In this document: positions 1 to 62,532 of the stretch, piece after piece
Layout: each line of letters begins with the position of its first letter
How positions within the stretch are numbered: the stretch's first letter is position 1
NCBI GenBank assembly: GCA_030658975.1
Contig: JAUSBL010000052.1
Span: 42,954 to 106,953 of the forward strand
DNA: 64,000 nucleotides
Reading direction: 5' to 3'
Source of the DNA: Candidatus Latescibacterota bacterium
GTDB taxonomy: Bacteria; Krumholzibacteriota; Krumholzibacteriia; LZORAL124-64-63
Translations under genes and position numbers: made by a program
The notes under the pieces: model-generated
The model's input: the letters and a program-made list of their open reading frames with translations, nothing else
Told to the model about the DNA's origin: nothing
Databases searched by the model: none

Positions 1-916
1 TCTCGGTGGTGACGATGGGCCTGCCCAGCGACATGGCTTCCAGCAGCGAAATCGACAACCCCTCCCATAGGCTCGGCTGGGCGACGATGTCTGCGGCCAG
101 ATACAGGCTGCCCACATCCCCGCGATAGCCCAGCAACCGGAATCGCCCCGTCAGACCGGCTTCGACGATTCTGCGCTCCAGTCGACTCCGCAGCGGACCT
201 TCGCCGGCCACCAGGAATCGACAGGACGCTCCGAGGTCTCCGAGTTTGGCGGCGGCGTCGATCAGATGGCTGAACCCCTTCTGCGGCGCGAGCCGCCCGA
301 CGCCGACGACGAGCACGTCGCCTTCATCCACGCCCAAAGAGCGCCGGAACGTCGCCCTGTCGAAGCCGGGCGGGACCGCCGGCGCGTTGATCCCGTTGGG
401 GATGGCCACGATTTTGTCCGCTGCGGCGATGTGCAACCGCAACGCCCACTCGCGGTGGAATCGGCTGACGCACACGATCCGGTGGCACCAGCCCGCGGCG
501 ATGCGCTCCAGCGCCGCGATGACTTTCGTCGCCGTCCTGCCGCTTTCTTCGTGGAACGCAAAACCATGAACCGTGTGGACCACATGAGGAACCTTCGCCG
601 CCGTCGCCGCGAACCGGCCGATCATCCCGGCCTTCGTCGTGTGCGTGTGGACGAGATCGTATTTGGCCGCCTTGAAGTGTCTGTACAGCATAAACGCGCC
701 GCGCACGTCACGATACGGATTGACCGAACGCTCGATGCAGTCGAGCGGCACAACCCCGATGCCGGCCGCCGTGAGCTGCCGGATGAACTCACGGTCGGTC
801 GCGACTACGTGCACGCGCAGGCCTTCCGATGCCGCCTTTTTGGCCAGGGCGAGGACGATCATCGAGCCGCCGCCGAAGCTCGAGTTGCCGACGACGTGGC
901 AGATCTTCCCCTTCAT
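1..916 (-). CDS. Glycosyltransferase family 4 (partial; 3' end runs off window start)
   Basis: Not in ORF track (no stop inside window). Reverse translation from ATG at ~916 gives MKGKICHVVGNSSFGGGSMIVLALAKK... and at the window edge the GT4 C-terminal motif EGLSISLLEAMSLGRPIVTTE. ATGA overlap with stop of the next GT gene (913-916). Confidence 0.75.
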   Translation of the reverse strand, partial: MKGKICHVVGNSSFGGGSMIVLALAKKAASEGLRVHVVATDREFIRQLTAAGIGVVPLDCIERSVNPYRDVRGAFMLYRHFKAAKYDLVHTHTTKAGMIGRFAATAAKVPHVVHTVHGFAFHEESGRTATKVIAALERIAAGWCHRIVCVSRFHREWALRLHIAAADKIVAIPNGINAPAVPPGFDRATFRRSLGVDEGDVLVVGVGRLAPQKGFSHLIDAAAKLGDLGASCRFLVAGEGPLRSRLERRIVEAGLTGRFRLLGYRGDVGSLYLAADIVAQPSLWEGLSISLLEAMSLGRPIVTTE

Positions 917-2076
917 CGTCGCCACCGATCGAGCGCCGATTCGTAACCATCCAGGACCTGCGCCATTCCGAAGTTGTTGCGGACATGTCGCCGTCCCGCC
1001 TTCGCCAGCGAGCGGCGAAGGGGCTCGTCGATGATCAGCCGATCGATCGCCGCCGCCAGCATGGCAGTGTCCCCGGGGCGCACCAGCAGTCCGGTTGTTC
1101 CGTCGTTGACGAGTTCCGGTGTGCCGCCGACCTCCGTGGCGACGACGGGTAATCCCATGCCCATGGCCTCGACGAGGGCGACCGGCAATCCCTCCCAGAG
1201 CGAGGGCAACACGAAGAGATCACAGGCCGGCAGCATCGCCATCACGTCATCGACGGCGCCGGCGAACACGATTGTCTTCTCGATTCCCAGATCGTGCGCC
1301 GTAGCCTCCAGTTGCGATCTCAGTTCACCGTCGCCAAGGATCAGACACCGCAATGCCGGATGGCGACATGAAAGTGTCGCCAATGATTCCAAGAGCACAC
1401 TCAGCCCCTTCGGGGGCGCGAGTCTGGCAGCCGTGACCACAACCAGGGAATCTTCTGGAAAGGAGAATTGTTTCCTCAAATCAGAACGGGACAGCGCGGT
1501 TGCACCATCAGGGAATTCCACGCCGTTATGCACGACGATGACGCGTTCGCCATCAAGGATGCCCTTCTCGATCAGCATGCTGCGCACGGCGACGCTGACG
1601 GCGATCCTGCCCGCATTTCTCCTGGCCACTGCTTTGTCGATGAGGTTGTAGAACGATGAAGTCGTACGCCAGGCATCGATACTGTGCTCGACCCCAGCAC
1701 TGGGCACACCGGCGATGCCGGCGGCAATCGTCGCGAAGGCATTGACGCGGGCGCCATGAGAGAGGACAACATCGGGCCGCCACGTGCGAATCAGGCCGAT
1801 CATTCGGGGCAGCGCCACAAGTCCCCGCCATGTGGCCAGCGGAAGCTGTGAATAGGGCAACCCCCTAGCCGCCAGTTGGCCCTCAAGCCAGCCCTTTTCC
1901 CCGAGTACCGTCATAACCTCATGGCCGCGATCAACCAGACCACTGGTCAAACCCAGCAACATCGTCTCGGCGCCGCCCCGGCTGGCGCTGGTCTTGAATT
2001 GAAGTATTCTCAATTTTCGGACCCATGCCCCTTTCAAGTCCATCGCCTGACATCCGTCCATCGAACGTGATCTCAA
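913..2076 (-). CDS. Glycosyltransferase family 4
   Basis: 387 aa ORF. C-terminal GT4 signature EGLPVALVEAMGMGLPVVATEVGGTPELVNDGTTGLLVRPGD. 4-nt overlaps on both sides. Confidence 0.85.
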   Translation of the reverse strand: MRSRSMDGCQAMDLKGAWVRKLRILQFKTSASRGGAETMLLGLTSGLVDRGHEVMTVLGEKGWLEGQLAARGLPYSQLPLATWRGLVALPRMIGLIRTWRPDVVLSHGARVNAFATIAAGIAGVPSAGVEHSIDAWRTTSSFYNLIDKAVARRNAGRIAVSVAVRSMLIEKGILDGERVIVVHNGVEFPDGATALSRSDLRKQFSFPEDSLVVVTAARLAPPKGLSVLLESLATLSCRHPALRCLILGDGELRSQLEATAHDLGIEKTIVFAGAVDDVMAMLPACDLFVLPSLWEGLPVALVEAMGMGLPVVATEVGGTPELVNDGTTGLLVRPGDTAMLAAAIDRLIIDEPLRRSLAKAGRRHVRNNFGMAQVLDGYESALDRWRR

Positions 2077-3374
2077 GGTCCGGAAATATCACCGAGACAG
2101 CCTGCGATGATTTCCGCCTTGTGGCGCCAGGTCTGACTCTCTGCCATCTGGCGGGACGCAGCACAGCGATCGCGCCAGGTGGCTTGGTCCTCGCCCAGTA
2201 TCGTCAGGATGGCCGCCGCGAGGGACCGCGCATCGTCCGGCGGCACCATCAATCCCGCCCCCCCATCCTGGATCTGCCGGCCCATCTCGTCCATTTCGTT
2301 GGTCACTACGGGCCGCCCGGAGGCGAGATAGGTCAGTGTCTTCAGTGACGAGATGGTGCCCTGATCGCCTCTGTTGCCAGGAAAGGTGGCAATGCAGACC
2401 GTGGCGCAACCCAAGTACTCGTTGACTTCACCGTAGGGTTTTTGACCCACGAGCGACACCTTGCTTGCGAGACCATGCCGCTCGATCTCATCCCTCAACC
2501 GTCCCTCGGTGATGCCGCCGCCAACAACAACGAATTGAACAGCAGGACAGCCACCGGCGACGATATCGACGGCGTCGACCAGAACCGCGAGCCCCTGCCA
2601 CGCGGAGATGACGCCGGCCCATACCACCGTCGGCACATCCTCGCGGCCTTGCTTCGCCAGACACTCCAGCCGGTCAAGTGGCATGAAAACCGAGGCATTC
2701 ACCCCGAGCGGCGCTTCGATGCACTTGTCCGCAGGTACGCCGAAATGGTCCTGAACGAAACGGATATAGCCGACAGCCCCCAGGACCCTGTCGGCCCTGC
2801 TGTACATGGTCCTTTCCCAGATGCGGGTCAGACCGATCAGCGCCGCATTGTTCGGCCGGTAGAGACGAACGTCGGCGGTCGGCAACCCGTTGATTTCGAC
2901 GATCAGGGGGCGGCCGCTGATCAGAGACACCAATAGCCCCACGAAGATCCCGGGTTCCATTCGCGAATACACGACATCCGGGTTGTAGCGGCGCACAGCT
3001 GCAATCCCCGCGATGGTGCCGGTCACGTTCCAGCTGAGTTGGCGGAGAAACCTAATGGCGAAGACAGGGGCGCGGACTTCGCGCAACTCGCTGTCGGCTG
3101 GAGCCTTCGGCCCAGGGAGGTTCAACAGAATCGGCTCCACGCCCGCCTCGCGGAGCGCGAAGGCCAGCTCCCGCGCATGCAGGGAGTCGCCCCGGTCCTT
3201 CCAGAGCGACAAGGCGCCGACTTGCAGAATTCGGAACCTGCGCCGAGCATCCATTTCATCACCTGTATCCTGATGGATGTCATCCCCCGGCGACCTTCCG
3301 GCGTCCGGGTCACGATTGCAACCTGTTCCAACACCGGCAATCACCCGGTGCGCCGATCCGTGGATGATCGGCAC
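2073..3374 (-). CDS. Glycosyltransferase family 4
   Basis: 433 aa ORF. GT4-like C-terminal block ...SGRPVVTNEMDEMGRQIQDGGAGLMVPPDDARSLAAAI. 4-nt overlap with downstream GT. Confidence 0.8.
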   Translation of the reverse strand: MPIIHGSAHRVIAGVGTGCNRDPDAGRSPGDDIHQDTGDEMDARRRFRILQVGALSLWKDRGDSLHARELAFALREAGVEPILLNLPGPKAPADSELREVRAPVFAIRFLRQLSWNVTGTIAGIAAVRRYNPDVVYSRMEPGIFVGLLVSLISGRPLIVEINGLPTADVRLYRPNNAALIGLTRIWERTMYSRADRVLGAVGYIRFVQDHFGVPADKCIEAPLGVNASVFMPLDRLECLAKQGREDVPTVVWAGVISAWQGLAVLVDAVDIVAGGCPAVQFVVVGGGITEGRLRDEIERHGLASKVSLVGQKPYGEVNEYLGCATVCIATFPGNRGDQGTISSLKTLTYLASGRPVVTNEMDEMGRQIQDGGAGLMVPPDDARSLAAAILTILGEDQATWRDRCAASRQMAESQTWRHKAEIIAGCLGDISGP

Positions 3375-4654
3375 ACACCAGACAAGAGGTTATCCAATTG
3401 ACTGCCGAGAGATGCGAGGGAGAACTGCTGGATAAAATCCCAGTTTGGAGCGTATCTCGCGGACAGTCTTTCGGCGTCCACCGCAATTTCGCTGATGAAA
3501 CCTGTGATACCGTCGAGATCCTGATTGTCGAAAACGGCACCAAGGCCGGATTGCTGCAGAATATCCGCAGCCTCGCTCTTCACCGGCATGACTCCCAGGA
3601 TCGGCAATCCTCGACCAAGATACTGAAACAATTTACCGGGAATCTGTGATGAGTACTTGGGATCGGCGTACTTGACCAGGAGCAGGATCCCAGAACGCGA
3701 CATTCTGGCTAGAGCCTCGTTTCTGGGCTCTTCCGGCAGCAGGCGCACGATCCGGCCAATTCCCAGGTCCCTGGCGAGCCGTATGGCCTCCGCTCCACCA
3801 ACACCGGCACCCAGGAGGTCGAGCCCTAAACGCTCCTCGTATTCCGGATGTCGGGCAATCGCCTTGGCTAGGGCCTCGACGACGATCCTGACATTGCGGC
3901 CTTGGCCGCCGGCGAGCGCTCCCGCGTGCAGGATCACGGTGCTCCGACCGCTATCATCGGGCCGTACTGGGGGCTTCGCCTCATCATACGACATGTAGAC
4001 CGGCACGATCCGATCCCGGCTCACGGAATGCCGGACGGCAATGTCTTCAGCCATGCTTCGTGTGGTCGTCAGGATCAGGGCCGACGCCTGGACCGTCTGC
4101 TCCAATGCTGCGAGTTCGGCCGCATGGGTCTTCATTTCCAAAGAGGGACAGGGATCCTGGAATTCGAGCACCAACGGAGAAGCGAAGTGGTCGGCAATCC
4201 GACGGGCGGCGACTAGGCTCCCGACATGACCTGTTGTCATGCCGATCACCATATCAGGGCGTTCCGGACGATTGCCGGTATACCAATCCGATGCTCTGGC
4301 CGGCCATCCTCGTTCGGGATCCCGGACGCGATGACCCCGACCCGTCAATGACAGGTATTCACGGTACATCCAGCGCGGCAGGCGGCCCCGAAGGTATTGC
4401 GGGTAGATGCCGGAAAAGGGTGTCCGCACCACAGACCCGACGAATTCATTCTCCGGCGACACGCCTGGGGTTACCCGATCAGCAGCCCCCGCCAACAAGG
4501 TGCAATTCCAACCACGGCCTGAGAGCGCACGTGAAACATCCAAAATCCGGGATGTTGATCCTTGCCATGAATACCGAAATGCCGTTTCGAACACGATCAG
4601 AACTGATTTCACGGTGCGGCCTCCACAATCCGACCCCGATGACGTTGGTTCCAT
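3341..4654 (-). CDS. Glycosyltransferase (GT4-like)
   Basis: 437 aa ORF. N-terminal KSVLIVFETAF... and C-terminal GILLLVKYADPKYSSQIPGKLFQYLGRGLPILGV typical of GT-B glycosyltransferases. True start probably GTG near 4612. Confidence 0.6.
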   Translation of the reverse strand: MEPTSSGSDCGGRTVKSVLIVFETAFRYSWQGSTSRILDVSRALSGRGWNCTLLAGAADRVTPGVSPENEFVGSVVRTPFSGIYPQYLRGRLPRWMYREYLSLTGRGHRVRDPERGWPARASDWYTGNRPERPDMVIGMTTGHVGSLVAARRIADHFASPLVLEFQDPCPSLEMKTHAAELAALEQTVQASALILTTTRSMAEDIAVRHSVSRDRIVPVYMSYDEAKPPVRPDDSGRSTVILHAGALAGGQGRNVRIVVEALAKAIARHPEYEERLGLDLLGAGVGGAEAIRLARDLGIGRIVRLLPEEPRNEALARMSRSGILLLVKYADPKYSSQIPGKLFQYLGRGLPILGVMPVKSEAADILQQSGLGAVFDNQDLDGITGFISEIAVDAERLSARYAPNWDFIQQFSLASLGSQLDNLLSGVCRSSTDRRTG

Positions 4655-4704
4655 TCTTGAATTGTTGGCCGCAAGGGTATTCGTTGTCTCCCCACTTCCG
4701 GAAG

Positions 4705-6285
4705 CTATCGGCGGCCATTACCGGGTGCAACCCCGCCGCCTCGTCTCAGGTACGACTTGAATCGGCCGGCGATCTGCTGAAATACCTCGCGATCGTTCTT
4801 TTCGAATCCAAGGACCCAACAAAGGACAATCCACAACATGACCGTGAGGGACACACACAACACCAGCGCGAAGAGGGATGTGGAATTCACCACATGATCA
4901 AGACCGAGAGCCGCCAATACCAATACCATGGCCACAACCAACGGGCGCCGGTAGGAAGCCCGGAAGTATTCCTGGCTGGTTAGGCCGCAGGCCTTCGCGG
5001 TGTAGAGTGCGGTCACCGGCCGTCTGATGGCCGTGATGATCACCGTCGGCACGATCACGCCCACGACTCCGAGTTGTGAGTACCGCACCAACAGGACCGA
5101 CCCGACGACGTTAAGAACGGCGAGGGGGACCTCCAGCCTGACGAGGAATCGCAGCCGATTCGTGCCCAGGAGAGTCGGGTAATGGACGCCGCCCGCATAA
5201 TTGAAAAAGTCGATCACCGACCACAGGATCAACATCCTGGCCACCGTGGCCACGTCGGCTCCCAGTGTTGTTCCCAGCCAGGCGGTGCATATCCTGTCAG
5301 CAAAAGCCGCCAAGATCGTACAAACGGGAATCCCCATCAACAGCGTGTAGCGCGTTCCCCTCAGCAGCAGTTCCTGGAGGTGCCGCGTGTCTCCCCTGAC
5401 GTGATATCCGGTTGCCAGCGGCGAGAATTGATGCGAAAGCGTCTCCACCAGCGGATGGAAGGCATTGGCAAGAGAGGCGGCCGGGGCGTAAAGCGTCACA
5501 GCCGCGGTTCCGAGCAGAGCAGTCAGGATGATCGGATCGACCCGAATCCCGATCAATGCCGTCAACTGCAAGGCGAAAACATATCCGCCCAGAGACAGCA
5601 GTGCCACGACGGCCTTGCGGTTAACCAAGGACAAGCGCAGACGCAATCCCGGCGTGATGCGCCAAGCAGTGAATCCCAGCAGCAGAAGGTTCACGATCAG
5701 GGCCATGGACATAGCCAAGGCCCAACCGGTGATGCCCCAATCGGATAAGTTGATGACGCCGACGATCAGAGCGCCCCTCAACAGCCCCACACCGGTCTGG
5801 ATATTGTTGATCAGGTCGAATCGGTTGCTGCTGGCGATCATCGTCTCGAACGCCGCAACAAGGAAAGTCAGCAGGATTCCGGGGGATCCGTACCAGCGGA
5901 TGATGAACTGCGCTTCGCGCGTGAGCTGATCGGGAATTTTCAGGGCCGCGACGATATCGGCCGACAGGACAAAAAAGGTCGAAGCCAGCGTGACTCCCAT
6001 CAACAGATAGATCAATAACGCGCTGCTGGCCTGCTCGTTGAATCGCTTCACGTTCTGCAATGCGGCGTGCTCAGAGAGAAATCGCCCCAGGGATCCACGC
6101 AGGCCCAAATCCGCCACCGTGCACATCCCAACCATGGCGACGACGAGCGAAACGAGTCCATAACCGTCACGAGCGTAATGGCCGATCATATACGGCACCA
6201 GCATCAGGCCTACCGCAGCATTGGCGAGCGTCGCAAGACCCCGACTGGCGGCATTGATGACAATTCGTGTCGAAGTCAGCAATCG
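4705..6285 (-). CDS. Wzx-type polysaccharide flippase (MOP/oligosaccharide flippase family)
   Basis: Multi-TM protein, about 12 predicted helices, RIVINAASRGLATLANAAVGLMLVPYMIGH N-terminus typical of polysaccharide biosynthesis flippases. ORF-track start 6405 is an upstream extension overlapping the ligase gene. Start here is approximate. Confidence 0.65.
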   Translation of the reverse strand, partial: RLLTSTRIVINAASRGLATLANAAVGLMLVPYMIGHYARDGYGLVSLVVAMVGMCTVADLGLRGSLGRFLSEHAALQNVKRFNEQASSALLIYLLMGVTLASTFFVLSADIVAALKIPDQLTREAQFIIRWYGSPGILLTFLVAAFETMIASSNRFDLINNIQTGVGLLRGALIVGVINLSDWGITGWALAMSMALIVNLLLLGFTAWRITPGLRLRLSLVNRKAVVALLSLGGYVFALQLTALIGIRVDPIILTALLGTAAVTLYAPAASLANAFHPLVETLSHQFSPLATGYHVRGDTRHLQELLLRGTRYTLLMGIPVCTILAAFADRICTAWLGTTLGADVATVARMLILWSVIDFFNYAGGVHYPTLLGTNRLRFLVRLEVPLAVLNVVGSVLLVRYSQLGVVGVIVPTVIITAIRRPVTALYTAKACGLTSQEYFRASYRRPLVVAMVLVLAALGLDHVVNSTSLFALVLCVSLTVMLWIVLCWVLGFEKNDREVFQQIAGRFKSYLRRGGGVAPGNGRR

Positions 6286-7517
6286 TCGCCTCGATTGCGA
6301 GGGGTTGCTCGCGTCGTTCCGCTGCCGCTGAAAGTGACGACCAGAAGTGCCTGTGACACCCAAACAAGGTAGTTCGTTGTGAGATCGCCACTCACCATGG
6401 CGCACACCACGGCGAACACGAAAAGTCCTGCGGCCCCCTGACGGAGGAGCTTCGGCTCGTACCGGTTCTCCACGCTTCTGCGCAATCCTCGCCAGCCGGC
6501 GATGAAGTAAGTGCTGAAGATCATGAGCCCGACCACTCCGGTCTCGATCAACACTTCGCCCACTAGGTTATGCACGAACTGACGCGTGCCCAGCGGTCCC
6601 TCGTTGTACCTGAAATGACCGGTGCCGATGCCCCAAATCGGGGAGGACTGGAGTTCCACCCATCCCTGTCTTGCGATGGCCATCCTGTATTCTTCATGTT
6701 CGCTGTTCGAGCGCTGAATGAAGAGAAAGGTCAACGCGGCGACTCCGAATACGATGACGGTCGCCGTGCCGGCAAGTTGGATCTTTCGCTTGCTGCGGGG
6801 AGAGTCCCTGTCGTTGAGCAGCGGCCGGATTAAAACGACTAGTCCGCAGATGAGCGCCAGCAAGGGCCCGCGTTCCCCCACCACGATTTGCCCGATAACT
6901 AGCACGATCAAGTACAGCAACAGCAGTACGGCATTCCATCGGCGCGCCAACATGGCCATCGTCAAAGCGATCAGGCCGCCGACTCCCAGGGATCGGCTGA
7001 TGCCGATGATGTCATAATCGAGATGTAGCAGCAGCCACCTCACTGATGCCGTACCGGAAGCCTGTTGCAGCAGCAGCGGCAGGAACAGGGGAACGACGGA
7101 CAGAATCAGCAAACATTTGTAGAGGAGAAGAGTGCAGGCCGGGCGATTCCTGTGGTTCCACAGGATCGCCATCGAAGGCATGACTGCGTAGAGGATGAAG
7201 CCCTGCGTCTTCCAGACACCATAGGGCGAGGGCTCGAAACGCAACATGGACAGGAACAACACGAGGACCGCAGCCAGCAGGCACAACGACATGAAAATCG
7301 TGCGCCGTGATGCCCGCAAACCCGACCTGGCCGCCACCGCGAGATTGAGCGCAGCCGCCACCGCGCCGACGATCAGACTCCTGGATCCGGAAAGCGCACC
7401 CGGAAGCACGAACTGCCAGATCAGCATGCCCTGCAGCAATACCGCCAGGCTGACGACGGCCGCCGCCTCCAGAATCGAACATCTCGCACGGGATTCCTCA
7501 GCTGCCGCGCCGCTCAC
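6276..7517 (-). CDS. O-antigen ligase / Wzy_C-domain polymerase-like membrane protein
   Basis: 413 aa, polytopic membrane protein with a large periplasmic loop. GTG start at 7517, 1 nt after the Wzz-like stop. Confidence 0.6.
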   Translation of the reverse strand: MSGAAAEESRARCSILEAAAVVSLAVLLQGMLIWQFVLPGALSGSRSLIVGAVAAALNLAVAARSGLRASRRTIFMSLCLLAAVLVLFLSMLRFEPSPYGVWKTQGFILYAVMPSMAILWNHRNRPACTLLLYKCLLILSVVPLFLPLLLQQASGTASVRWLLLHLDYDIIGISRSLGVGGLIALTMAMLARRWNAVLLLLYLIVLVIGQIVVGERGPLLALICGLVVLIRPLLNDRDSPRSKRKIQLAGTATVIVFGVAALTFLFIQRSNSEHEEYRMAIARQGWVELQSSPIWGIGTGHFRYNEGPLGTRQFVHNLVGEVLIETGVVGLMIFSTYFIAGWRGLRRSVENRYEPKLLRQGAAGLFVFAVVCAMVSGDLTTNYLVWVSQALLVVTFSGSGTTRATPRNRGDDC

Positions 7518-7518
7518 C

Positions 7519-8511
7519 TCAGTTCCCCGAAGTCGCAGGGCGCCCGCGGACCAGAACCCAACCGCATGCCAGCACGAATCCGAGCGCGGCTCCGCCCAGG
7601 GCGATCAGCGATCGGCTCGGGGCAGAGCGGACGAAGGGTACCGTCGCTGAATCAAGCACCTCGATCGCGATCACATCCTTGTTTTCGTCGATCTTGGCAA
7701 TTTCGAGCTGCCTTTTCAATTCGATCCAAACCGCTGTCTGGACCTGCAGGTCGCGGGTCAATTCCGTATGGCGTCGGTTAAGTAACGGAGAGGTTGCGAA
7801 GGACCGGTTCTGCGATTCGAAGTCCGCCAGGCTGGATGCGGCCGCATCGAGTTCGATCCGGATTTCATCGAGCCGATCCGAGATGAAGCGTCTTTGCTCC
7901 GAGGCCCTGCCCCGCGACATCTCCTGGAGGTAGGCGTCGAGTTCGCCGGCGAGCGCATTTGCCAATTCCGCCGCGAGTTCGGGCCACCGGGGAAGGCTGA
8001 CGCTGATCTGCATGTAGCCCGTTGCGGCGCGGCGCTCGAAGGAAATGACCTGCCGCCTGAGGTTGCTCTTGAAGCGCTCCCGCTCGGCCCATGTCTTGAC
8101 CGGAGCGTCGGGGTGCTTGCGCGACCCGAGCAGCTCCATCAACGGCCTGGGATCGTCTCCGGCATATCTGCTCCACTGTTCGTCGAGTATCCGGTCCAGC
8201 ACCCTGTTGGAAGTGATGATCTGGCCATAAAGGTCTTCGTAGGTGGGCCCGTTGCCGAGTTGCATGTTCGTCAGGGACGCGAGTTGACCCAGTAAATTCT
8301 GTTGGGTGCCCTGGTCGCGCGGCAAGAGCGATACCCGGGCCGTATAGATCGGCGGCAACAGCAGAGAGATCACGGCGGCGATGACGCCGCAGATCAGGAT
8401 CACTGCGGCGATCAGGCGTCGGCTCCTCCACATCAACCTGGTCAATTGCACGACACCGATCTCGTCGTCGCCCGTCGATGCCGGCATTTCGTCGTACGTC
8501 CGTGTCATCAC
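7519..8511 (-). CDS. Wzz/GumC-like polysaccharide chain-length determinant (no kinase domain)
   Basis: 330 aa. N-terminal TM then LLPPIYTARVSLLPRDQG (Wzz motif), coiled-coil region, C-terminal TM. No Walker A/B BY-kinase domain. Confidence 0.7.
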   Translation of the reverse strand: MMTRTYDEMPASTGDDEIGVVQLTRLMWRSRRLIAAVILICGVIAAVISLLLPPIYTARVSLLPRDQGTQQNLLGQLASLTNMQLGNGPTYEDLYGQIITSNRVLDRILDEQWSRYAGDDPRPLMELLGSRKHPDAPVKTWAERERFKSNLRRQVISFERRAATGYMQISVSLPRWPELAAELANALAGELDAYLQEMSRGRASEQRRFISDRLDEIRIELDAAASSLADFESQNRSFATSPLLNRRHTELTRDLQVQTAVWIELKRQLEIAKIDENKDVIAIEVLDSATVPFVRSAPSRSLIALGGAALGFVLACGWVLVRGRPATSGN

Positions 8512-59714: not shown

Positions 59715-60218
59715 ATGGCAGAAGTCGCCGTCGCCGAGAGCGGCAAGAAGAAGCCACAGGACAGCAGTTCCGTGTTCCGGCCCAGGAAGCGGCGGGCGGG
59801 CATCCGCATCGACATGACGCCGATGGTGGACGTGGCCTTCCTGCTGCTGATCTTCTTCATGGTCACCACGGTGTTCCGCCGCCCGCTGGCCATGGAGGTG
59901 AACATGCCCGAGCCGGGCGCCAAGGTCGAGGTGCCCGAGTCCAACGTGATGACCGTCTTCGTCGACAAGGACGAGGCGCTGTACTTCAAGATGGGGACCG
60001 GCGCCCTGACGAAGGCGACCTGGGAGGAGTTGGCCGCGGACTTCCGCAGCTTCGGCGCCGCGAACCCCGAGCTGATCGTCCTGGTCAAGATCCACCGCGA
60101 AGCCCGCTACGAGCCCATGGTGGACATGATGGACACCCTCGAGGACGCCAACATGCAGCGCTTCAGCCTCGTGCCGATGCAGGAGGGCGAGGACGCCGTG
60201 CTGGAGGGAGTGCGATGA
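59715..60218 (+). CDS. exbD: ExbD/TolR biopolymer transport protein (second copy)
   Basis: IRIDMTPMVDVAFLLLIFFMVTT signature. Lys-rich N-terminal extension. Confidence 0.9.
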   Translation: MAEVAVAESGKKKPQDSSSVFRPRKRRAGIRIDMTPMVDVAFLLLIFFMVTTVFRRPLAMEVNMPEPGAKVEVPESNVMTVFVDKDEALYFKMGTGALTKATWEELAADFRSFGAANPELIVLVKIHREARYEPMVDMMDTLEDANMQRFSLVPMQEGEDAVLEGVR

Positions 60219-61018
60219 GCCGCAAGGAAACTGCACCGGGCGCCGCGTCCCACATCCCGACCGCCCACATACCTTGGGCCTTCAGCCTCGACGACGCGCC
60301 GCACCTGCCGCTGACCGGCGAAGACCACCCCCTGCGCCGCGAGCTGGGCCGCTGGCTGAGCTGGGCCAACGGCATCACGCTGCTGCTGGGCGCGCTGGTG
60401 TTCGCGGGCTGGTGGCTGTGGAGCCACCGCCAGGTCCCCGAGCCGCCGCCGCGGGAGATCCGCATCGTGCGCTACACGGACCTCGGCGTGCCGCCGTCGA
60501 TCTCGCGCCCGACCGCCCCGCAGATCAGCATCGCGCGGGCCGTAGCCGACCTCGCCGCGCCGCCGTCGATCGGCGTGCCCGAGCCGGTCGCCGACGAGCT
60601 GGCCACCTCGCAGACCATCGCCACGGTGACCGAGATGGCCGAAGCGCTGGCGCCGATCACCATGGAGGGCCTCGGGGGCGGCGAGGGCGAGGGCGGCCTG
60701 GTCGTGGACGTGGACATCGACGTCTCGCCGTCGCCGGACGACTTCATCGCCGTCGACGAGGAACCCGTGCGCATCTCCATCGACCCGCTGAACTACCCGC
60801 CCATGGCCCGCTCGGCCGAGGTGGAGGGCACGGTCCTGGTGCGCGTGCTGGTGGGCAAGAACGGCAAGGTCAAGGACGTCATCGTGATCGAGGGCGAGCA
60901 GATGCTGCGCGACGCGGCGATCGCGTGCGCGCGGACTTCCGTGTGGAAGCCGGCGCTGGTGGATCACAAGCCCATCGAAGTCTGGGTGCTGATGCCCCTC
61001 ACTTTCAAGCTGCGGTAA
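60215..61018 (+). CDS. tonB: Energy transducer TonB
   Basis: N-terminal TM, Pro-rich spacer, C-terminal TonB_C domain (YPPMARSAEVEGTVLVRVLVGKNGKV...VWKPAL). Confidence 0.85.
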   Translation: MSRKETAPGAASHIPTAHIPWAFSLDDAPHLPLTGEDHPLRRELGRWLSWANGITLLLGALVFAGWWLWSHRQVPEPPPREIRIVRYTDLGVPPSISRPTAPQISIARAVADLAAPPSIGVPEPVADELATSQTIATVTEMAEALAPITMEGLGGGEGEGGLVVDVDIDVSPSPDDFIAVDEEPVRISIDPLNYPPMARSAEVEGTVLVRVLVGKNGKVKDVIVIEGEQMLRDAAIACARTSVWKPALVDHKPIEVWVLMPLTFKLR

Positions 61019-61020
61019 CG

Positions 61021-61117
61021 GGTGAGCCCATCCCCTTGGCGGGGGACGCGCTCCGGTCACCTCCTGTGACCGGAGCGCTCGACTTTCGGGCTCCCCCGCC
61101 AAGCGGATAGGCTCACC
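61021..61117. repeat. Long imperfect palindromic element (REP-like) filling the tonB / 2TM-gene intergenic region
   Basis: Arms GGTGAGCC..TTGGCGGGGGA..GCGCTCCGGTCAC / GTGACCGGAGCGC..TCCCCCGCCAA..GGCTCACC (8+11+13 bp paired) around loop CTCCT. Confidence 0.55.
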
Positions 61118-61119
61118 AG

Positions 61120-61479
61120 GTGCAACAGCGGGTGGGTTGGGACGTAGTGCTGCTCACGAGACTGGGGAGCGGTTCCATCAACGGGGGGTTGGAAGTGTTC
61201 AAGGTGTTCAGCGACATCAAGTACCTGTTCACGGCGCCGTTGATCCTGGGCATGCTGTTCGTCATCAACCTGGCGACTTCGCCGGGCGACTGGTGGGTCC
61301 AGTGGGCGGCGCTGGGGATGGGCATCGCGTGGGTGGTCTGCCTGCTGCGGGTGATCCGCGCGGCCATCGTCGTCGGTGGGCTGGCGGCGCTGGGGGCCTG
61401 GCTGTGGAAGCGTGAGTCGGCGGGACGCAGCACCGGCACGACGCCTCCCCGGAGTACGGATTCCGTCGAGCAGGCCTGA
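61120..61479 (+). CDS. Small 2TM membrane protein
   Basis: 119 aa, two hydrophobic helices (FTAPLILGMLFVINLA, AALGMGIAWVVCLL). GTG start immediately after the palindromic element. Confidence 0.5.
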   Translation: MQQRVGWDVVLLTRLGSGSINGGLEVFKVFSDIKYLFTAPLILGMLFVINLATSPGDWWVQWAALGMGIAWVVCLLRVIRAAIVVGGLAALGAWLWKRESAGRSTGTTPPRSTDSVEQA

Positions 61480-61549
61480 GGATTCCCGGATCGTTCTGAA
61501 ACCATCGTCGTGGGACGGAGCCGGCGGGGCAGCGAACCTCGCCGGCTTT

Positions 61550-61682
61550 TATCCGCACATCCTGTGGTGACAGGGGTGTCCTGGAGGCCTTGGAGCCAGG
61601 ATGGCGGAAAGGCCGGAAGGCCAAGCGCTCCGGGCACACGAGGTGCCCGGAGCGCGTCCCCTGTCACCACAGGATGTGCGGA
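61550..61682. repeat. Nested palindromic element between convergent genes (likely bidirectional terminator). Inner stem related to element at 61021..61117
   Basis: Outer perfect 26-bp inverted repeat ATCCGCACATCCTGTGGTGACAGGGG (61550-61575) / CCCCTGTCACCACAGGATGTGCGGAT (61657-61682). Inner perfect 13-bp hairpin GCGCTCCGGGCAC-acgag-GTGCCCGGAGCGC (61624-61654). Confidence 0.55.
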
Positions 61683-61683
61683 T

Positions 61684-62214
61684 CTACATGCCCCAGAGGT
61701 GCATGGTGTTGACGTCCCGCCCCATCAGCTTCAGGTAGTAGAAGAGCTGGCTCTTGTGGACCGCCAGGTGCTCGGTCATGCACAGGAACTGGTGGCCCAG
61801 CGAACGCTCGGTCGGATCCCAGGGTGCGGCCACCATCTGGTTGGCCAGCTTCTGCTCGCCGGCCTGGGCGATCATGTCCAAGGCGACCTTCTTGTCGGCG
61901 GCCAGCAGGGCGCGGGCCTCCTTCACGCTGCCGACCGACGGCAGGGCTTCGGCCGGGGGCAGCATCGCGTCGGGGGGCGGCCCGTCCTTCGCGTTCTCGT
62001 CGCACGGGGGTGCGCCCCAGTCGCCGGTGGCGAAGCCGCGGCAGCAGAAGCCGCAGGCGCTGGTCAGGTGCATCAGCAGCTGGCCGGTGGTCATCCAGTT
62101 GCTGCCGGTGTCGGGCTTCCAGGCGAGATCCTTGTCCTGCACCAGAGCCATCAGGCCGTCGGTGGCCTTGTAGGTGTCTTCGACGGTGCACTTCAGCAGT
62201 TCGGTCCAGTTCAT
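61684..62214 (-). CDS. DinB/YfiT-like four-helix-bundle family protein (hypothetical)
   Basis: ATG 62214 with AAGGAG SD 6 nt upstream. 176 aa (MNWTELLKCTVEDTYKATDGLMALVQDKDLAWKP...). Family assignment tentative. Confidence 0.5.
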   Translation of the reverse strand: MNWTELLKCTVEDTYKATDGLMALVQDKDLAWKPDTGSNWMTTGQLLMHLTSACGFCCRGFATGDWGAPPCDENAKDGPPPDAMLPPAEALPSVGSVKEARALLAADKKVALDMIAQAGEQKLANQMVAAPWDPTERSLGHQFLCMTEHLAVHKSQLFYYLKLMGRDVNTMHLWGM

Positions 62215-62532
62215 GGGGCGCTCCTTGAGGGTGGTTGGTGGCCGGGGCTCACGGAAATCATCCGGACATGATCGTCGAAAATCGGTCTTGCGCATACCGG
62301 TCAGCAAAGAGGAATCGCCGACCGGGCCTCCGCGCCTGGTTCCGGGCCGGACGCCAACCCGATCCACGGCAGCGGTTTGGATCTTTGCCCCGACCGGGGC
62401 GCGCCGCCGGGACGGAGGCCTGTTGAAATGATTTGATGTTTTCATTATAGTGTTGGCCGTCACGGACGCACCATCTCATCAAGGAGTCGCGCATCCGCTC
62501 TGGGTTTTGGCCGCCAACAGGAGGTGCCATCC

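Follow-up and report, generated by a model that had tools for sequence, protein, structure and literature searches.

A family of branched palindromic repeats abutting gene ends, represented by two elements in a genome of the Krumholzibacteriota lineage

The 64-kb stretch of Candidatus Latescibacterota DNA analysed here (contig JAUSBL010000052.1, positions 42,954 to 106,953; hereafter the window, in whose own numbering all positions are given) carries two long palindromic elements, E1 and E2, lying on either side of a gene for a small protein with two predicted transmembrane segments (2TM). The two elements almost certainly belong to an undescribed repeat family with a maintained structure, of which 59 further copies were found in related genomes and metagenomes. 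The family is a new variant of the dispersed intergenic palindromic repeat, characterized by a branched core, hypervariable perfect arms and tight abutment on stop codons. With moderate confidence, it is proposed that its members would act as gene-end RNA hairpins, in the manner of the REP and ERIC repeats. To our knowledge, the Krumholzibacteriota and their relatives have no cultured model, and their gene-end and repeat biology is unstudied.

E1 (61021-61117) and E2 (61551-61683) are the two longest local inverted repeats of the window. They are not the nested simple hairpins suggested by the initial annotation, the fold model giving in both cases a three-way junction composed of an outer stem (P0), a core hairpin (P1) and a second hairpin (P2). 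Read in the same sense, the elements follow a common plan in which a P0 5' arm ending in GGGGAC leads to a 13-bp P1 with a CUCSU loop, then to P2 and finally to the P0 3' arm. Folded as single strands, E1 and E2 reach minimum free energies of -89.1 and -107.7 kcal/mol, respectively, with z-scores of -8.3 and -11.5 relative to shuffled sequences. E1 is on the plus strand, sense behind a TonB gene, and represents the T/A core subtype with most of P2 lost. Its P0 5' arm (61021-61046; GGTGAGCC, CATCC and CTTGGCGGGGGA in succession) pairs with the 3' arm at 61092-61117, as judged from the inverted repeat and the fold; P1 (61048-61078) has a 13-bp stem, the loop CTCCT and a U-A pair at stem position 10; and P2 is reduced to the 14-nt remnant TCGACTTTCGGGCT (61079-61092) instead of the 48 nt of typical copies, with 34 positions of the family covariance model deleted. 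E2 is a typical full-core member on the minus strand, sense and 0 nt behind the stop codon of a DinB-family gene. In its own orientation, the P0 arms defined by the inverted repeat are ATCCGCACATCCTGTGGTGACAGGGG (5' arm, 61658-61683) and 61551-61576 (3' arm); P1 (61625-61655) has a 13-bp stem with the loop CTCGT and a G-C pair at stem position 10, and the 48-nt P2 (61577-61624), of class A, displays UCC/UCC internal loops and the apical sequence GCC-AUCCU-GGC.

A core shared by the two elements had been noticed from the start. The pattern GCGCTCCGGNCAC-N5-GTGNCCGGAGCGC has exactly two matches in the window, 61048-61078 and 61625-61655 (the second had been placed one base too low), compared to a mean of 0.00 in 100 window shuffles, and tolerating up to three mismatches neither reveals a third site in the window nor any site in the shuffles. 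Stem position 10 differs as reported, being T/A in one element and G/C in the other, and the perfect 26-bp outer inverted repeat of E2 is confirmed as well, its arms (61551-61576 and 61658-61683) being separated by 81 nt. The resemblance is nevertheless not restricted to the 31-nt core, since it spans about 65 nt, with the elements inverted relative to one another. A covariance model built from the family and run over the window matched just these two elements, E2 with 153.8 bits on the minus strand versus 50 on the plus strand, and E1 with 77.3 bits on the plus strand (best match 61020-61118) versus 40.8 on the minus strand. The nearest relative of E1 is the copy in L001 (loci fetched for comparison are designated by L numbers).

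A scan with the exact pattern, taking one genome per species, returned 56 loci. Forty-two of these share the whole architecture and contain 45 copies, or 47 when E1 and E2 are included. Five metagenome-assembled genomes (MAGs) supplied the pattern-found family copies: two from Danish wastewater plants with no label but 'bacterium' (14 and 16 exact-core copies), a soil MAG, and two that bear the labels 'Fibrobacter' and 'Gemmatimonas'. The covariance model, applied to the fetched loci, added three copies with altered cores, and a scan of metagenome contigs with a pattern leaving P1 free added nine. The counts of 14 and 16 exact-core copies, those of two long-read MAGs, are minimum values: variant cores occur in roughly every second copy sampled independently of the core, and the true number is therefore perhaps 30-40. 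The unit is a three-way junction of 97-155 nt, many copies reaching about 270-290 nt with their arms. This recurrence supports the earlier suggestion of a REP-like or structured family, which had been staked on the existence of further copies.

The five MAGs are very close relatives, their flanking coding DNA being 91-100% identical; this closeness was measured among the five only, and their fetched loci have no genes in common with the window. The MAGs named 'Fibrobacter sp. IMS_BF' and 'Gemmatimonas sp. SW.020' in the titles of L001, L020 and other records have genes 93-98% identical to those of the unclassified wastewater and soil MAGs. As these near-identical genes come along with the same repeat family, the genus labels of both are probably wrong. 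The lone pattern matches in Streptomyces, Micromonospora, Amycolatopsis, Hyphomicrobiales, Hydrogenedentota and others were rejected, being core-like palindromes only that fail the family model, and a tandem repeat of Thermoflexales was likewise discarded for lack of a match to it. The latter (L050, 4429-4567; MAG contig DAORUN010000041) consists of at least three tandem 54-nt units with the core-like palindrome GCGCTCCGGTCACTGYGAGTGGCCGGAGCGC, which includes a U-G pair on one strand. In viral contigs and in plasmid and phage records, neither the core pattern nor E2 had a match. Rfam 15 gave no match in the window at gathering thresholds and, at E <= 10, only generic long-hairpin matches far below threshold, mostly to microRNA precursors. 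A literature search on the MAG names and on Krumholzibacteria repeats retrieved nothing relevant.

The maintenance of the structure is best seen in an alignment of 44 copies, where the pairing of the three-way junction is respected in 98.1% of cells. Compensated double changes occur in 27 of the 50 pairs. The compensated cells number 233, whereas shuffling the columns gives 48 and sliding the partners by 1-3 columns gives 28-52. P1 is invariant in this alignment because the search pattern fixed it. Among the nine copies found independently of P1, five have the canonical core and the other four exhibit six compensated pair changes at five stem positions, plus two G-U pairs, with two more compensated P1 positions contributed by the model-found copies; at position 10, G-C, U-A and A-U variants are all present. 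The compensatory covariation first proposed from a single pair therefore generalizes to the family. The accompanying claim of a selected secondary structure can be retained in part: covariation is strong, but it does not distinguish RNA from DNA as the selected structure, wobble pairs are not enriched and the arms look homogenized at the DNA level. Departures from pairing in the alignment are of the G-U type in 14 cases versus 12 of the A-C type. The sense strand folds slightly better (29 versus 17 copies, p = 0.054), and G-U counts show a similarly weak trend.

Constraint is also apparent outside the stems. The apical loops of P1 and P2 are both conserved as NUCSU (CUCGU/CUCCU and AUCCU/CUCCU, respectively), the junction bases are conserved, and P2 length is fixed at 48 nt in the core architecture. 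The conserved loops and junction suggest that the core may be read by a protein, either a host RNA-binding factor or an element-moving enzyme. Examples of the apical loops are found in the window at 61061-61065 and 61598-61602. As separate observations, CACCUCCU in E1 is identical to the anti-Shine-Dalgarno end of 16S rRNA, and the P1 and P2 loops read from the opposite strand would be of the AGGA type, resembling CsrA sites.

The outer stem behaves differently. Its ten junction-proximal pairs (GTGACAGGGG) are conserved, whereas the distal part is wholly different among many copies and yet perfectly paired, or with one or two mismatches, over 12-37 bp. Between orthologous copies whose flanking genes are 91-100% identical, up to half of the distal stem positions differ, in both arms together. 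For the two long-read MAGs, the distal arms show 11-13% mismatch and the core 3.4%, compared to 5.3% in pooled flanking coding DNA (about 2% by hand after removal of one non-orthologous upstream-gene pair). Base-by-base selection on RNA cannot keep P0 perfect, because a long stem barely feels one mismatch. For this reason, and because compensated transversions have accumulated between near-identical genomes, the evidence points to arms kept matched by DNA-level copying, which might proceed by template switching within the palindrome or by conversion from other copies. A third copy of the distal arms, as a source in nearby DNA, was not found within 8 kb. The copy in L028 is a hybrid whose 5' arm resembles that of its orthologue, whereas the 3' arm follows the family consensus. 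In the orthologous loci L005 (1013-1144) and L031 (4687-4818) of two closely related MAGs, with collinear flanks, the core is inverted, which is consistent with recombination between perfect arms.

Arm length varies as well. Viewed as terminal inverted repeats, the P0 arms are perfect or nearly so over 12-37 bp and extend to about 100 nt per side in many copies. In the commonest subfamily, many copies share such far longer arms, forming hairpins of about 270-290 nt with an asymmetric internal loop and folding energies of -260 to -300 kcal/mol. L052 has a hairpin of about 260 nt (200-460; -230 kcal/mol) whose 5' arm takes up the final ~40 nt of a gene, stop codon included, and whose 3' arm is an inverted copy of this gene end; judged by eye, the gene is short-chain dehydrogenase-like. 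Longer 3' arms seemed to be in excess, but this arises in part from the use of a 3'-type consensus, and only about five loci are counted as real cases.

The position of the copies relative to genes was surveyed for 61 copies, that is, 49 found by pattern (47 of them confirmed members) and the 12 found later. In 41 of the 49, the stop codon of the sense gene lies -10 to +65 nt from the 5' edge of the element (at 10 nt or less in 29 of the 41), and in 51 of the 61 a sense gene ends between -45 and +100 nt from that edge. As to orientation, 25 copies have a sense gene only, 6 an antisense gene only, 26 both and 4 neither, which after collapsing orthologues corresponds to roughly 14-16 sense versus 3 antisense. 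Where genes converge, the sense stop codon is typically 0-8 nt away and that of the opposite gene 50-70 nt away; in long-armed copies, the stop codon is found at the outer end of the long arm, and in two copies the reading frame enters the 5' arm and stops at the conserved TGA of GTGACAGGGG. Nearly all copies lie in extragenic DNA or reach no further than the last codons of a gene, with one extended hairpin including about 40 nt of a gene end. The carriers are housekeeping genes unrelated to each other (PrpD, aldehyde dehydrogenase, aconitase, isocitrate dehydrogenase, MacB/FtsX, an NtrC-type regulator and aldo-keto reductase). In three independent convergent gene pairs (L006/L032, L016 and L052), two copies stand 67-115 nt apart, each sense behind its own gene, which argues for an orientation tied to the upstream gene and against one set by the direction of replication. 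The window has the same paired layout, with the 2TM gene happening to sit between the copies.

In the proposed model, the copies would be transcribed as the 3' untranslated tail of the upstream gene, where a stable RNA junction would define and protect the mRNA 3' end. The element could act as a terminator or insulator lacking a U-tract, could block 3' exonucleases and might also be a substrate for RNase III, for which P0 stems of 22-37 bp and longer are ideal. The family would have spread in the way of miniature inverted-repeat transposable elements (MITEs), and the complementarity of the arms would be kept by DNA-level copying and not by base-by-base RNA selection. The absence of a U-tract, already pointed out for E1 and E2, holds for the family, none of the 47 copies checked having four or more T residues in the 8 nt after P0. 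A terminator scan detected nothing at E1 or E2, the sequence after P1 is UUGRCCUU, only a weak U-tract, and hairpin-plus-U-tract terminators are not enriched in the genome to which the window belongs. The lack of a U-tract, the conserved branched core and the multi-copy nature of the family agree with the earlier view that these are not simple terminators.

Several points weigh against this interpretation. Termination or stabilization by the elements is a role that we infer. No promoter is predicted between E1 and the 2TM gene, which a strong terminator would silence; for this reason, a barrier or processing function fits E1 better than full termination. Ten of the 61 copies have no sense gene at their 5' edge, and there is no clear excess of wobble pairs on the sense strand. 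A generic hairpin function also leaves unexplained the conservation of P1 and P2 sequence and of their loops. Finally, no transposase, target-site duplication or donor element was identified in the fetched loci, and a MITE-like spread is consequently conjectural.

The family may be compared to several known groups of repeats. REP elements, BIMEs and REPINs are repeats of enterobacteria and pseudomonads (Bertels & Rainey 2011, PMC3116915; PMC3337134). Like REP/BIME sequences, the copies described here are dispersed extragenic palindromes, often located between convergent genes and close behind stop codons, that persist at orthologous sites; REP sequences form mRNA hairpins that block 3' exonucleases. 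However, a REP is a single imperfect palindrome of 20-40 nt with a conserved, GTAG-like 5' tetranucleotide, which the family copies lack, having instead a three-way junction of 100-290 nt with two different internal hairpins and a hypervariable outer stem. REPINs, in turn, combine two inverted copies of the same REP and number hundreds per genome, whereas here P1 and P2 differ and the copies are counted in tens. No RAYT gene was seen, although whole genomes were not scanned, and the sole window gene bracketed by two copies encodes the 2TM protein. REPs located within about 15 nt of the stop codon reportedly affect translation termination as well.

ERIC sequences (also IRU; enterobacteria and yersiniae) and the Correia/NEMIS elements of Neisseria measure about 100-150 nt and are imperfect palindromes whose ends form long terminal inverted repeats. 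Both occur in transcribed intergenic regions and give rise to long RNA hairpins; these undergo processing by RNase E or RNase III and alter upstream mRNA stability in an orientation-dependent manner. Stabilization or processing of upstream mRNA is common to REP, ERIC and Correia elements. The family has no sequence relationship to ERIC or Correia elements, neither of which is known to present a conserved branched core, wholly differing arms or such tight abutment on stop codons; Correia elements, for their part, carry an IHF site, are flanked by a TA target duplication and show promoter activity. In Streptococcus pneumoniae, BOX elements are intergenic repeats built of modules in a conserved order, with several hairpins and a stable predicted RNA structure. 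They differ from the family in their boxA-boxB(n)-boxC logic, in being AT-rich and in having no known rule of sense orientation at gene ends.

GC-rich hairpins devoid of a U-tail reportedly terminate transcription in actinomycetes and their phages. They resemble the family in being long, perfect hairpins at gene ends of high-GC genomes with no U-run, some of them acting bidirectionally between convergent genes, but they are individual, unrelated hairpins that are not known to form an asymmetric-core family and whose orientation is irrelevant. Integron attC sites (57-141 nt) are likewise structured imperfect palindromes placed directly 3' of an open reading frame in a fixed orientation, with structure conserved above sequence and a variable terminal structure that can branch. 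In contrast to attC, the P0 ends vary, there are no RYYYAAC/GTTRRRY sites, cassette arrays or integrase, and the carriers are scattered core metabolic genes, with copies single or in convergent pairs. By analogy with these systems, the family most likely works like REP/BIME, ERIC and Correia elements while belonging to none of them.

The strongest competitor of the gene-end hairpin model, possible but clearly less probable, is that the family is purely selfish miniature mobile DNA without a host function, in which case position and orientation would result from a preference for inserting, for instance, at gene-end hairpins or in DNA near stop codons, and from the purging of harmful insertions, and the P1/P2 core would be recognized by a transposase, possibly as folded single-stranded DNA, as with IS200/IS605 and RAYT. 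The P0 arms are terminal inverted repeats as in MITEs, and insertion polymorphism is likewise seen: E1 is present in the window and absent from L085 and L086, E1 and E2 are both absent from L071, and the core is inverted between L005 and L031. Non-orthologous copies share arms of 34 to about 100 nt, implying recent spread as a unit, and the hybrid arms of L028 and the strict Watson-Crick pairing without a G-U excess go in the same direction. In addition, the empty site of L085, GATCCCGGATGC, resembles the ends of E1 (CATCCC, 69 nt, then CGGATAGG), a hint that insertion may have taken place in the middle of a small native palindrome, an alignment of E1 with that site to fix the insertion point being ambiguous. 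Against a purely selfish nature, copies are kept at orthologous sites across species and the core changes about one third as fast as the arms; the opposed copies 67-115 nt apart at convergent genes argue against an orientation bias driven by replication; and copy number is low. Moreover, about 0.55 Mb of fetched loci yielded no transposase, no clear target duplication and no solo or transposase-bracketing arm that would denote an insertion sequence with the same ends, the genomes not being fully searchable. The search for target-site duplications gave no consistent direct repeat, L065 having CTGATCAAG on both sides, a sequence itself partly palindromic.

It is rather unlikely that the elements are primarily a protein-binding platform, with NUCSU pentaloops displayed on a rigid junction to a dedicated factor binding RNA or single-stranded DNA, which would join scattered genes in one post-transcriptional circuit. 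The conservation of loops, junction bases and P1 relative to the freely varying distal stem, the motif shared by the two apical loops and the fixed 48-nt P2 would all be accounted for. Yet no functional theme unites the carrier genes, the copies are not linked to any candidate partner gene, and the P1 stem varies with compensation, hence the identity of its bases is not read; the conservation could equally reflect recognition by a transposase. A comparably low probability is assigned to a novel class of gene-end-homing hairpins, neither REPIN nor classical MITE, in which a conserved three-way-junction core, recognized in a folded single-stranded form, would be placed at native gene-end palindromes or in their middle, immediately past stop codons, and the arms rebuilt by fold-back synthesis, or else to a dedicated RNA-protein system for 3'-end formation in a phylum without U-tract terminators. 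Fold-back synthesis would explain arms that differ fully and change fast compared to neighbouring coding DNA and are yet perfectly paired.

That the elements are double-stranded DNA operators of a dimeric regulator, or transcription roadblocks, with P1 as two 13-bp half-sites, is very improbable. P1 is indeed a highly conserved, near-perfect palindrome with a 5-bp spacer, but variants change both half-sites symmetrically at seven positions, so that pairing is kept and protein-read bases are not; in addition, the flanks are strongly asymmetric, orientation relative to genes is strict and the copies are at gene ends instead of promoters.

The locus itself bears on the remaining alternatives. The TonB gene (60215-61018, plus strand; Pfam TonB_C) is the last of an ExbB-ExbD-ExbD-TonB operon, and E1 begins 2 nt downstream of its TAA stop codon (61016-61018). 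The 2TM gene (61196-61479, plus strand) has a likely GTG start at 61196, giving 94 aa; gene callers also propose 61120, and the former was chosen because the close homologues, among 1585 in total, are of 94 aa. The 2TM protein has no Pfam match. The gene is followed by a hairpin of its own on the plus strand (61519-61552; AGCCGGCGGGG-N7-CCTCGCCGGCT) and then TTTTAT, overlapping the first 2 nt of E2. The DinB-family gene (61684-62214, minus strand; Pfam DinB_2) abuts E2 with its TAG stop codon (61684-61686), and its product matches, with 100% identity, a protein from an NCBI MAG labelled Candidatus Latescibacteria; the label of close relatives is Krumholzibacteria.

In L084, the 2TM gene is located between TonB and DinB as in the window, with a copy of E2 (148 bits) directly behind the DinB stop codon. 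In L085, it follows TonB, and the contig ends inside an E2 copy (106 bits). E1 is missing from the orthologous 105-nt TonB-2TM spacer of L085 and L086. L071 has TonB and DinB directly convergent, separated by a plain, hairpin-bearing spacer of 64 nt, without E1, E2 or the 2TM gene. From this synteny of E2 and the 2TM gene in relatives that lack E1, E2 is seen to be an old element retained at an orthologous site in at least three genomes. E1 was either gained specifically in this lineage or lost elsewhere, and the 2TM gene is a conserved resident outside the repeat, not its cargo. The flanking of the 2TM gene highlighted by the initial annotation was thus correct as to positions but is incidental, E1 being the 3' element of TonB and E2 that of DinB, with the 2TM gene of relatives found without E1. 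The gene-end hairpin of 2TM is kept in L084 (2826-2870) and L085 (2815-2868) with compensated changes, while the T-run of the window, TTTTAT, is not, which suggests that gene-end hairpins of this lineage may generally act without a U-tract.

A mobile cassette, with E1 and E2 as inverted terminal repeats or attC-like sites mobilizing the 2TM gene, is largely refuted by these comparisons. The mutually inverted elements do bracket the gene, and L071 lacks both elements and gene at a 64-nt junction; however, the order TonB-2TM-DinB in L084 and TonB-2TM in L085, the latter with E2 and without E1, speaks against mobilization, as do the absence of a 2TM homologue beside any other family copy, the mere 67-115-nt spacers enclosed by other convergent pairs, and the lack of attC core sites, cassette array or integrase. 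As for two unrelated one-off terminators alike by chance, both elements are at gene ends and GC-rich hairpins are common at 70% G+C, but the idea is refuted by the copy census, the pattern never occurring in shuffles and 59 further copies sharing 130 nt of architecture.

Other features of the region were recorded. Between TonB and 2TM, L084 (825-2054) has three small minus-strand genes without a Pfam match, where the window has only E1 plus 78 nt. The best sigma-70-like promoter match of the last 20 kb of the window (62423-62451, plus strand; TTGAAA-17-TATAGT) is on the strand opposite to the DinB-family gene, within the gap upstream of it. Positions 1-8000 have 59-64% G+C, compared to 67-76% elsewhere in the window, and a different AT skew, and may constitute a foreign or distinct segment. 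Logan short-read assemblies of the genome of the window break at E2, L057 ending inside it and L083 31 nt past the DinB stop codon.

These findings have consequences for genome analysis and for the biology of the lineage. Palindromes of this kind fragment short-read assemblies exactly at gene ends, and on covariation alone they can be mistaken for structured non-coding RNAs. The covariance model, R1, provides a searchable marker for a lineage widespread in wastewater, soil and saline water. The family is also a likely handle on the formation of 3' ends without U-tracts in a high-GC phylum. Finally, it offers a natural case of a long palindrome that stays complementary while its sequence outpaces the neighbouring genes, which bears on how bacteria tolerate and maintain palindromes.

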